DNA of 7,586 nt, taken from UHGV virus genome UHGV-1434521. The stretch is one strand, 5' to 3'. Below the pieces are notes generated by a model, which made no database searches, was not told where the DNA came from, and saw only the letters and a program-made list of their open reading frames with translations. This document shows positions 5,205-7,586 of the stretch, piece by piece. Position numbers and translations under genes: made by a program. Origin of the DNA: a virus. Position 1 is the first letter of the stretch, and each line of letters starts with the position of its first letter.

Positions 5205-5522
5205 TTAACCTTTGATCTCTGCGATGCCACCATCGGAAGAAACATTATAAGTTACACCTTCCCTACCCTCCATTGACCACGCACGGACATAGACAGGAAT
5301 TTGAACTAATTTCCCAATGAAAGCATTCGCCTGGTTCATTAGACCTGCGTTAACGAGAGCCTGAGAAACTCGAATAATAATTTGATCCTGCTTTGTACCA
5401 CCAAAACCATCAGGTATTTCAAGGCCAATACCAATTTCATTATAATAGCCCTGACCATTAACTTTATTACGTTGGCGGGCTCCCAACATTTTACCCTTAA
5501 CGAAAAGACCATAATTAGACAT
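5205..5522 (-). CDS. Gene-V-position protein (105 aa); putative ssDNA-binding/replication-switch protein by synteny only
   Basis: Fills the gap between gII and gVII exactly, with a strong AAGGAA RBS 6 nt upstream. The sequence (Gly-rich, GFGG) does not resemble M13 gVp as I recall it, so the function is assigned by position, not homology. Confidence 0.6.
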   Translation of the reverse strand: MSNYGLFVKGKMLGARQRNKVNGQGYYNEIGIGLEIPDGFGGTKQDQIIIRVSQALVNAGLMNQANAFIGKLVQIPVYVRAWSMEGREGVTYNVSSDGGIAEIKG

Positions 5523-5533
5523 ATTACTTTCCT

Positions 5534-5848
5534 TTAATGCCAGCTACTGGCGTGCGAAATACGGTTGTAATCGAAAATAAAACCTTTCTCATAAATCCAT
5601 AAGGGGATTTCCGCTGGCTTGGCTTCCAGCGTTCTTATTAGCGGAACAACGTTATTAGAGTCTGGTGAATCACAATAGAAATTAATATCGATACCGAACG
5701 AAAGCAATTCTCTTCTATGGCGATAAAAAGTGTTATGAGGTAACATTTCTTTCATGTTAGCCCCTTGTTTCCAAAGTAAATAAGTTGACTGTATTTTTCT
5801 TGGCAGTTTCGTTATTTTTTCATCACTTAAAATAGCATTCTGATTCAT
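5534..5848 (-). CDS. X: pX, in-frame internal-start product of gene II (C-terminal 104 aa)
   Basis: In-frame ATG at 5848-5846 (MNQNAILSDE...) is preceded by GGGAG with a 7-nt spacer, and parallels the M13 pX start (MNIYDDSAVLD). The alternative in-frame ATG at 5896 lacks an SD. Confidence 0.5.
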   Translation of the reverse strand: MNQNAILSDEKITKLPRKIQSTYLLWKQGANMKEMLPHNTFYRHRRELLSFGIDINFYCDSPDSNNVVPLIRTLEAKPAEIPLWIYEKGFIFDYNRISHASSWH

Positions 5849-6628
5849 TTCTATTCTCCCTACATATTCAGAGAATAATTGACGTGGTGTTTTCATATTC
5901 CAGTTAGCGCCAAGCGTTAAATTTAAATCAATAAGCTCAGTTGTTCTTAATGTTAATTCAATACGTAATTTATCTTTCGTCCAGTCCAGTAACCCGGCTC
6001 GTACAAACTCTTCGGCTATCTGGTGCCCTTTTTTACCAGAAACGTGTTCATCATATTTTGAATAAAATTTCAGACTCCATCGACGGGAGTTTTTACCTAA
6101 ATAAACTGTACCGCCTTTCCCACATGCGCGACCATGGCGTGTTTTAGCTTTAAATTCGGCGGCATAAAGCCATGATCTGACATTTTCCAGCGTAGATAAT
6201 GAATACATGTAATTAATGTCAACACGTGAAATTTTATACTGACCTGCCATAACGGCTTTATAAGACGCTAAATCATGAGGAATATTCAATAAGGATAAAA
6301 TCCTGGCATAGACCGTCAACATGAGCCCTTGTATATCATCCGACCCAACAACAGAATGCCCCTGCAGAAACTTGGAAGGATTACCATCAATGTACAAATG
6401 TGTCGCTTTACCTTCGCCATTAGATCCTATCGATCGTACTTTCATCGTTGCTTCATGCGAACCGCGAACAGTCAGTCGCTTAACGGTTTCCCACTCAATT
6501 GCACCGTCAGCATCAACGCTGACAACACTCCCCGCCGGAAGCGGTTTGTGTGTGCAAGGGAAAATCCCGGTAAGCCAATCGATCACGAATAAATCCTCAA
6601 AATTGCAAAAATGACGACTTACTAACAC
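5534..6628 (-). CDS. II: Rolling-circle replication initiator pII (Phage_CRI / gene II family), 364 aa
   Basis: The C-terminal block NNVVPLIRTL matches M13 pII NNVVPLVRFI, and an internal block LQGHSVVGSDD matches LQGHNVFGTTD. It is first in the gene order. The apparent start is GTG at 6628-6626 with no obvious SD, so the start assignment is uncertain. Confidence 0.88.
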   Translation of the reverse strand: MLVSRHFCNFEDLFVIDWLTGIFPCTHKPLPAGSVVSVDADGAIEWETVKRLTVRGSHEATMKVRSIGSNGEGKATHLYIDGNPSKFLQGHSVVGSDDIQGLMLTVYARILSLLNIPHDLASYKAVMAGQYKISRVDINYMYSLSTLENVRSWLYAAEFKAKTRHGRACGKGGTVYLGKNSRRWSLKFYSKYDEHVSGKKGHQIAEEFVRAGLLDWTKDKLRIELTLRTTELIDLNLTLGANWNMKTPRQLFSEYVGRIEMNQNAILSDEKITKLPRKIQSTYLLWKQGANMKEMLPHNTFYRHRRELLSFGIDINFYCDSPDSNNVVPLIRTLEAKPAEIPLWIYEKGFIFDYNRISHASSWH

Positions 6629-6755
6629 ATGAGTTCAGTAGTTCATTAGTGTTTTAACATTACACCAGTGAGCTAGTGAGTTCAAGAGGCTTGGATGATA
6701 TGAGTTCATGAGCATGTATACTCACTTCAAATATTGCATTGAACGAGCGTAAAAA
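6629..6755. promoter_or_regulatory. Divergent intergenic control region between gII and the RHH gene, with direct repeats
   Basis: TGAGTTCA at 6630-6637, 6677-6684 and 6701-6708; AGTGAG at 6667-6672 and 6675-6680. Candidate leftward gII promoter: -35 TTGAAC (6685-6680), 17-nt spacer, -10 TAATGT (6662-6657). Candidate rightward -10 TATACT (6717-6722). Confidence 0.45.
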
Positions 6756-6938
6756 ATGGCAAAGCGCACGACTTATAACGTGACGGAAGAAAGAAAAATG
6801 AAACTAGAACGACTGGCTATAAATGCCAGTGTAAAACTAGGAAAAACAATTACATGGACAGAGATTTTAGGTTATCTGATTGATAACTACTCTAAAGATG
6901 CAGCAGAAGATCTCATGTCTGCCAAACAAAAGGATTAA
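6756..6938 (+). CDS. Small ribbon-helix-helix-like DNA-binding protein (60 aa); candidate repressor or antitoxin
   Basis: MAKRTTYNVTEERKMKLERLAINASVKLGKTITWTEILGYLIDNY fits a strand / helix / G-x-T turn / helix RHH pattern (CopG/Arc-like). It is divergently transcribed from gII. Weak RBS. Confidence 0.55.
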   Translation: MAKRTTYNVTEERKMKLERLAINASVKLGKTITWTEILGYLIDNYSKDAAEDLMSAKQKD

Positions 6939-6957
6939 GTACCACGAATGGTACAAA

Positions 6958-6995
6958 CGTGCAGTATTACCTACACTGCACGTTCTTTTCTGTGC
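6958..6995 (+). terminator. Candidate rho-independent terminator after the RHH gene
   Basis: 8-bp perfect stem cgtgcagt (6958-6965) / actgcacg (6975-6982) with 9-nt loop, followed by TTCTTTTCTGTG. It is preceded by a smaller hairpin gtacca-cgaa-tggtac (6939-6954). Confidence 0.6.
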
Positions 6996-7090
6996 AAATT
7001 ATAAGCAGCAAGGACGTTAACGAAAAGAAAACTAGTATCGACATTCGAAATGTTAACTATTATTAACAAATAGAGTAATGGAAGAATATA

Positions 7091-7586
7091 ATGATCACTA
7101 TAGAAGAAGCAACATCGGTCCATGAATATTTAACAAATTACTATCAAAACTCTGATGATCCTATCTCTCCTCCGGGAATAAAAAACATAGAGCTTTTAGA
7201 GTCTGCCATAGCAAGACCTTTTATGACCATGAACAGAAAGGATGTCTATCCAGATGATTTAGATAAAGCCGCAGCTCTATTTCATGGTGTCATATCCAAC
7301 CACTGTTTCCATAATGGTAATAAAAGAACAGCACTTCTACTAACCATGTGCTTTTTAGACCGAGCTGGATATTGGCTGGATAAGTGTGATGACCTGCAAC
7401 TCTTTGAATTTACAAGAGGTGTTGCGGCACATGAGATATGTGAAAATAGAATTGATGAAATAAAAACAATCAAGGCATTTTTCCGAAGTAATTCACGGAA
7501 GAAAAAAATCACAGATGAACAATTGAGTTTTATTGCATTAAGCAGGCATCTAACCAACGCAGGTTTCAATATAGAAGACGATGGTG
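7091..7586 (+). CDS. Doc/Fic-family (death-on-curing-like) toxin-domain protein, 3'-truncated by the window edge (at least 165 aa)
   Basis: Manual translation from ATG 7091: MITIEEATSVHEYLTNYYQNSDDPISPPGIKNIELLESAIARPFMTMNRKDVYPDDLDKAAALFHGVISNHCFHNGNKRTALLLTMCFLDRAGYWL... It contains HCFHNGNKR, matching the Doc-type motif HxFx(D/N)(G/A)NKR, and the N-terminal region parallels P1 Doc as recalled. No stop before the window end, which is why it is absent from the ORF track. Confidence 0.8.
   Translation, partial: MITIEEATSVHEYLTNYYQNSDDPISPPGIKNIELLESAIARPFMTMNRKDVYPDDLDKAAALFHGVISNHCFHNGNKRTALLLTMCFLDRAGYWLDKCDDLQLFEFTRGVAAHEICENRIDEIKTIKAFFRSNSRKKKITDEQLSFIALSRHLTNAGFNIEDDG

Follow-up and report, generated by a model that had tools for sequence, protein, structure and literature searches.

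The stretch of DNA analyzed here, the whole 7,586 nucleotides of the UHGV virus genome UHGV-1434521 (referred to as the window), carries the gene set of a filamentous phage, all of it on the - strand. Two genes face the opposite way, a 60-aa ORF lying head to head with gene II and a Fic/Doc-family gene that begins at 7091. E. coli SCU-118 carries an identical copy of the window in its chromosome, located between ydeT and hipA. Beside this copy, at the end where ORF 9-242 lies, an intact E. coli dif site occupies positions 2705-2732 of locus L001, 70-97 nt left of window position 1, which identifies the window as a dif-integrated prophage. Its other end falls between the Doc gene and hipA, beyond the window. 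This dif-integrated filamentous prophage of E. coli belongs to the Ypf-phi/CUS-1 lineage (PMC4266046). In a near-identity search of a phage database, the sole result was a short match in gene IV to phages IKe and Erwinia PEar; there is accordingly no close annotated phage, and a search of the whole window against Rfam returned zero families. The Fic/Doc-family gene encodes 244 aa, occupies window positions 7091-7586 and runs on to about 7825 in L001. It has a strong promoter-like site of its own (TTAACA-18-TATAAT, 7063-7092, 11 of 12 matches) and no obvious antitoxin gene beside it.

The initial annotation had gene II starting with a GTG at 6628 and the first of three repeats abutting that codon. 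This proved to be wrong. The GTG at 6586 is the gene II start in the RefSeq annotation of an identical prophage, it is preceded at a distance of 7 nt by a ribosome-binding site on the - strand (GAGGA, 6594-6598), and position 1 of the Pfam Phage_CRI profile aligns with residue 1 of the protein that starts there. Consequently, the spacer between the two divergent genes spans 6587-6755, and the first repeat lies 44 nt upstream of the start codon. The features of this region are compiled in Table 1.

Table 1. Genes, predicted promoter elements and putative operators in the window.
Feature	Position	Strand	Sequence or description
Coat genes		-	
Zot-like gene I		-	
Secretin gene IV		-	
G5P-like gene	5205-5522	-	
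Gene II	5534-6586	-	rolling-circle replication initiator (pII), presumed regulated gene; Phage_CRI and G2P_X_C
Exchangeable regulatory ("immunity-type") cassette	6587-6938		divergent control region and 60-aa regulator gene
O1, putative operator	6622-6645		CTAACACA TGAGTTCA GTAGTTCA; core 6630-6637; about +5 to +28 of the predicted gene II transcript
Gene II -10, predicted	6657-6662	-	TAATGT, 17 nt from the -35
O2, putative operator	6669-6692		TGAGCTAG TGAGTTCA AGAGGCTT; core 6677-6684; over the predicted gene II -35 and spacer
Gene II -35, predicted	6680-6685	-	TTGAAC, in the O2 core; invariant in all relatives
O3, putative operator	6701-6716		TGAGTTCA TGAGCATG; core 6701-6708; fills the spacer of the regulator's predicted promoter
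Regulator -10, predicted	6717-6722	+	TATACT, from a consensus scan
60-aa regulator gene	6756-6938	+	predicted ribbon-helix-helix, ParG-like; phrog_2503 (function unknown)

All three copies of TGAGTTCA described for this spacer are present on the + strand with zero mismatches, at the core positions given in Table 1. When the 169-nt spacer was shuffled 50,000 times with its dinucleotide composition preserved, any 8-mer appeared three or more times on the same strand in only 50 cases (0.1%), and elsewhere in the real window the only stretches of 169 nt with a triple 8-mer lie in the Gly-rich repeat of gene III. The repeats are thus not a product of chance. The sole further exact copy in the window lies on the - strand at 143-150, where it reads TGAACTCA on the + strand. 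It falls in codons E-F-N-E-F of ORF 9-242 (phrog_5435), with a 2-mismatch copy 9 nt before it; we set it aside as an operator, as it is probably a coding coincidence. The two AGTGAG repeats that had been reported alongside TGAGTTCA are located correctly at 6667-6672 and 6675-6680, but they do not constitute a separate motif: both arise within O2 when AG, TGAGCTAG and TGAGTTCA are read through without a break, so that the pair marks the junction of two adjacent 8-bp units. A - strand copy of AGTGAG is found at 6721-6726.

Each exact repeat is the best box in a short tandem array of 8-bp units with the consensus TGARYTCA (TGA-R-Y-TCA), a near-palindrome that has GAGT/ACTC inside and can be read as T-GAGT-TCA or TGA-ACTC-A. 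The units were aligned across 11 distinct relatives by anchoring each sequence at the middle box and cutting it into 8-nt pieces; the resulting alignment is almost gap-free, and MAFFT returned the same conserved islands. Relative to the consensus, the cores carry on average 0.09 (O1), 0.00 (O2) and 0.27 (O3) mismatches among the 11 relatives, the flanking O1 and O2a units about 1.6-1.7, and the weak O2c and O3b units 3-4. The O2 core is invariant in 11 of 11 relatives, the unit upstream of it is degenerate, and AGAGG occurs in 9 of the 11; at L008, a locus from a metagenome-assembled Scandinavium genome, the O3 box is degenerate and reads AATGTTCA. O1 may reach as far as 6653 through a fourth, weaker unit, TTAGTGTT. 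The O2 and O3 cores are separated by 24 bp (three 8-bp units) in the window and in eight of the 11 relatives, and by 25 bp in two. Among all box-to-box distances, 8 bp (14 pairs) and 24 bp (9 pairs) are the most frequent, and further pairs occur at 16 bp. The orientation of the O1 and O3 cores flips among relatives between TGAGTTCA and its complement TGAACTCA, and one relative (L013) carries a perfect 24-bp palindrome, CTCTTGAACTCATGAGTTCAAGAG.

We next consider the arrays together with the promoters predicted in the spacer. The middle repeat had been said to overlap a candidate gene II -35 element, and this observation holds, as the predicted TTGAAC (6685-6680) coincides with the O2 core; part of the invariance of that core could reflect promoter conservation, since the hexamer overlaps it. 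At the 17-nt spacing, a -10 element of the form TAnnnT is present in nine of the 11 relatives and TTATAT in the other two. For the regulator gene, the relatives have TATACT, TATAAT, TAGAAT or TAAGAT at the place of the predicted -10, and the -35 is weak and unconserved; O3 occupies the 17 nt directly upstream of the TATACT. From these elements, transcription would begin near 6650 for gene II and near 6729 for the regulator gene. The placement of the boxes relative to the predicted promoters is conserved in every relative, and O1, O2 and O3 would all stand at classical repressing positions. In the promoter consensus scan, promoter-like sites were no more numerous than in shuffles. A search for a LexA box in the spacer found none.

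In agreement with the suggestion that related phages be scanned for the repeat, boxes reading TGAGTTCA or TGAACTCA are found in the same three clusters in 11 of 11 distinct relatives that carry a homologue of the 60-aa gene. These relatives come from E. coli, Salmonella, Brenneria, Phytobacter, Scandinavium, Providencia and metagenomes (a scan of genome contigs gave only 4 loci), and the spacer sequence between the box clusters diverges among them. Two other versions of the prophage exist in E. coli genomes, in which an unrelated spacer and an HTH regulator gene replace the cassette; the HTH_3 matches belong to these alternative cassettes. Between the window and the HTH-type E. coli prophages, sequence similarity breaks off where the gene II start codon lies and picks up again near 6938, and the 60-aa ORF is the sole gene within the swapped segment. 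The cassette itself is present in 48 E. coli genomes.

The exchange separates the boxes from pII in both directions. The HTH-type E. coli prophages at L002-L004 encode a pII 86-87% identical to that of the window, and their spacers contain zero boxes at up to one mismatch. Conversely, four relatives with boxes (L009, L011, L013 and L015) encode divergent Phage_CRI proteins of 371-381 aa that have no BLASTP similarity to the window pII, and at L008 (1504-2670) the RHH gene and TGAGTTCA boxes lie upstream of an initiator of the Rep_trans (RstA-type) family, an arrangement that shows cassette exchange across replication-protein families. The boxes therefore track the 60-aa gene across three unrelated replication-protein lineages and do not track pII, and the control region together with its regulator gene forms an exchangeable cassette that moves between filamentous phages.

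These observations bear directly on the proposal in the initial annotation that the repeats are either operators or iterons, bound by the RHH protein or by pII itself. The origin of Ff phages has short repeats beside the nick site to which pII binds, and the boxes described here do lie just upstream of gene II. The double dissociation, however, with similar pII proteins lacking boxes and boxes accompanying replication proteins that BLASTP cannot relate to the window pII (divergent Phage_CRI and Rep_trans), contradicts pII as the box binder, and we regard origin-binding sites for pII as an extremely improbable explanation of the repeats. Comparative evidence instead lends good support to the other half of the proposal, sites for the RHH protein.

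A better origin candidate was found outside the cassette. Immediately beyond the 3' end of the regulator gene are two hairpins, at 6939-6954 and 6956-6984 (L003 3700-3760). The first has the stem GTACCA..TGGTAC, with a compensatory change to GTCTCA..TGAGAC in HTH-type prophages, and the second, AACGTGCAGT-attacctac-ACTGCACGTT, with its loop around 6966-6974, is invariant across all cassette types. In E. coli O114:H49 90-9280 (L003 1907-6086), a 1831-bp unit that comprises the opening 39 codons of gene V together with gene II, the spacer and an HTH regulator is repeated head-to-tail at least three times beside a full prophage, an array reminiscent of CTX-phi RS1 satellite arrays or Ff miniphages. 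The novel joint of this array is situated within the second hairpin's loop, where 4 nt (ACCA) show microhomology to gene V, and is what aberrant rolling-circle initiation or termination would leave behind. Because the joint lies in this loop, the hairpin at 6956-6984 is a better origin candidate than the boxes, and we consider it a candidate pII nick site or plus-strand origin.

Another possibility is that the boxes are recognized by a host transcription factor common to Enterobacterales and that the 60-aa protein does something else. The hosts of all 11 relatives are indeed Enterobacterales, the link between the boxes and a phage protein comes from comparison, and in the related phage Ypf-phi the host regulator RovA binds the gene II promoter region (PMC4266046). 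On the other hand, HTH-type prophages that share both the species and the chromosomal site have no boxes, more distant homologues of the 60-aa protein come with repeats of other sequence arranged in a similar way, and the LexA box is absent. The motif matches no E. coli factor that we know of. A partial TrpR-like CTAG site was discarded since it is not conserved in the relatives. Taken together, these points make a host factor an unlikely binder, and we return to the 60-aa protein as the candidate.

Pfam analysis of the 60-aa protein returned zero families, HTH families included, and among 52 homologues the curated RHH families appeared only below threshold: ParG in five (best E 0.055), RHH_3 in one and VapB in one. 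The AlphaFold2 monomer model (pLDDT 94.5) has residues 1-10 extended, followed by helices at 11-28 and 34-59; the N-terminal strand, which forms only in a dimer, is absent from the monomer. In a test of structural similarity the model resembles solved RHH structures. The protein is thus predicted to adopt an RHH-like fold, and it has almost no tail beyond this DNA-binding fold. An exhaustive profile search collected 65 cluster representatives. Alignment of the resulting profile with the RHH domain of ParG by hhalign gave a probability of 79% (the ParG sequence used agrees with the fragment in the PDB hit), and the best PDB sequence match of the profile is likewise ParG, with an E value of 0.052. 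A PDB sequence search with a shallow alignment yielded one chance match, and hhalign comparisons with CopG (probability 5%) and omega were negative.

The likeness to ParG of plasmid TP228 extends to the DNA sites. The sites of ParG are degenerate ACTC/GAGT tetramer boxes, either direct or inverted, set apart by AT-rich spacers of 4 bp; each box takes one dimer, and the dimers bind cooperatively (PMC3130281, PMC3413123). The boxes in the window share with the O_F operator and parH centromere of TP228 the same ACTC/GAGT core and the same 8-bp period, and the strand KRVNVNFD of ParG resembles KRTTYNVT of the 60-aa protein. The two systems differ in that ParG, which carries a flexible tail of 30 residues, works with the partner ParF (a ParA) and coats 8-12 boxes, whereas the 60-aa protein has neither tail nor ParA, and its sites form three separate arrays of 2-3 units on two divergent predicted promoters, unlike the long ParG arrays. 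Homology between the two proteins is weak, and no Pfam ParG match reaches threshold.

Given this relationship, the arrays and the ParG-like protein might be mainly a centromere-like or copy-control site of the episomal replicative form and not a transcriptional switch. ParG, the nearest detectable relative, binds a centromere, and its operator also has centromere activity (PMC3130281). One member of the family (L025 1501-2473) lies outside any phage, directly upstream of a ParA-type ATPase gene (CbiA/MipZ), and is preceded by AAATAAGTTATT repeats at 24-bp spacing; the family therefore covers both partition-type and phage-type contexts. However, a ParA-type gene was seen neither in the window nor in the phage relatives examined, the 2-3 units here compare with about 8 for efficient ParG centromere activity (PMC3130281), and the boxes coincide with predicted promoter elements in every relative. 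We thus consider a primary role in segregation or copy control very unlikely, and operators of a transcriptional repressor remain the reading that we prefer.

Distant homologues of the 60-aa protein with other N-terminal strand residues are also encoded divergently from a replication gene and are accompanied by different repeats in a comparable layout: three copies of GCATAAC at L022, AACATGT with an 8-bp tandem pair at L024, and three copies of TTAAAATTTTAA spaced by 56 and 24 bp at L026. This pattern fits a site specificity that shifts along with the protein. The L025 protein has a nearly identical strand, KRNTYNIT, and its region has a different dominant repeat, with TGTTCA/AACTCA elements present only in degenerate form. 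The relation of strand residues to bases is therefore not simple.

A further explanation would make the 60-aa protein the antitoxin of the downstream Fic/Doc-family toxin and the boxes a toxin-antitoxin operator. The distribution of the two genes speaks against such a pairing: a query that includes the Doc gene is covered to at least 80% in only 4 E. coli genomes, compared with the 48 that have the cassette, and among the relatives listed from other genera none shows a Fic/Doc-family gene beside it. In addition, the Doc gene has the strong promoter-like site of its own described above, and the 60-aa protein has almost nothing beyond its DNA-binding fold. We give this explanation, like that of pII iterons, next to no weight.

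The evidence points to the three TGAGTTCA copies being the core boxes of operators O1, O2 and O3 for a 60-aa RHH repressor of gene II, a reading to which we assign a probability of roughly three in four. By analogy with ParG and MetJ, one dimer of the 60-aa protein would bind each 8-bp unit and neighboring dimers would bind cooperatively, with the core boxes as the high-affinity part of each operator. Judging from position, occupation of O2, over the -35 element and promoter spacer, and of O1, just past the start site, would block transcription of gene II. With gene II off, rolling-circle replication and the downstream phage genes would be off as well, and the dif-integrated prophage would stay quiet. 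Occupation of O3, in the spacer of the regulator's own predicted promoter, would result in negative autoregulation. The cassette as a whole would define immunity types, as rstR/ig-2 does in CTX-phi.

The closest parallel in layout is the RstR/ig-2/rstA module of the Vibrio cholerae phage CTX-phi. There, as here, a regulator gene is divergent from the replication gene and repeated sites lie in the spacer between them. CTX-phi has its operators between rstR and rstA, and repressor and spacer are exchanged among similar dif-integrated phages, just as 6587-6938 of the window is exchanged for two HTH types. The CTX-phi spacer also has a LexA site, whereas none was found in the spacer of the window. 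RstR is an HTH protein and is not homologous to the RHH-like 60-aa protein, and binding has been demonstrated for RstR, while the operator sites described here are predicted. The regulator of Ypf-phi, YPO2273, is an RstR-like HTH protein (PMC4266046, which also gives context for the CTX-phi module). The HTH-type E. coli loci (UTI89, NU14, NC101 and similar strains) look CUS-1-type, CUS-1 itself lying outside the comparison. They have the same phage backbone as the window and occupy the same place in the chromosome, beside hipA; dif was located in L001 only. Unlike the window, the Ypf-phi/CUS-1-type (HTH) spacer has no TGAGTTCA box. The window phage would represent a different immunity type of the Ypf-phi/CUS-1 lineage.

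Small RHH repressors that act in comparable ways are familiar from other systems. Arc and Mnt of phage P22 and the methionine repressor MetJ bind cooperatively to adjacent units, and Arc controls divergent phage promoters. These proteins have no detectable sequence relationship to the 60-aa protein and recognize other box sequences, and MetJ needs a corepressor. In plasmid pMV158, transcription of the gene for a rolling-circle replication initiator is controlled by the RHH repressor CopG; copG and repB share a transcript, whereas the 60-aa gene is divergent from gene II. MetJ recognizes tandem 8-bp near-palindromic met-boxes with one dimer per box, and the CopG element is pseudosymmetric and 13 bp long (PMC3413123).

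Temperate filamentous phages with a repressor-operator cassette at their replication gene and RHH repressors acting on tandem boxes are both already known, and a mechanism of this kind, an ordinary genetic switch, is in itself unsurprising. What is new is the 60-aa protein family (phrog_2503), its operator map and its link to ParG. The literature that we searched contains no description of an RHH repressor in filamentous phages of enterobacteria; for the Pseudomonas phage PMBT54, an omega-like RHH ORF has been annotated in one paper without further study. Pathogenic E. coli, Salmonella and Yersinia often harbor filamentous prophages at dif, and to our knowledge their silencing is understood for CTX-phi and Pf only. 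The RstR-like gene of Ypf-phi is untested (PMC4266046). Our analysis supplies a map of three putative operators, each with its core defined, together with a 60-residue candidate repressor and natural cassette swaps that predict heteroimmunity groups. It also places phrog_2503 in a ParG-like branch of RHH proteins, and a box with the same core and the same period could help work on the RHH recognition code.

In a broader and more speculative scenario, an RHH protein of the centromere-binding type, related to ParG, would have been recruited as a lysogeny and immunity repressor of enterobacterial filamentous phages. Together with its 8-bp box arrays it would travel as a portable cassette with at least three unrelated lineages of rolling-circle initiators, giving rise to heteroimmunity groups among dif-integrated prophages, and might have a second, ParG-like role in copy control or segregation of the replicative form. 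We regard this scenario in its entirety as doubtful.

Finally, a repeat finder detected an imperfect direct repeat of 23 nt with 78% identity, one copy of which lies in the 5' leader of gene II (6599-6621) and the other at the start of the regulator gene (6753-6775).
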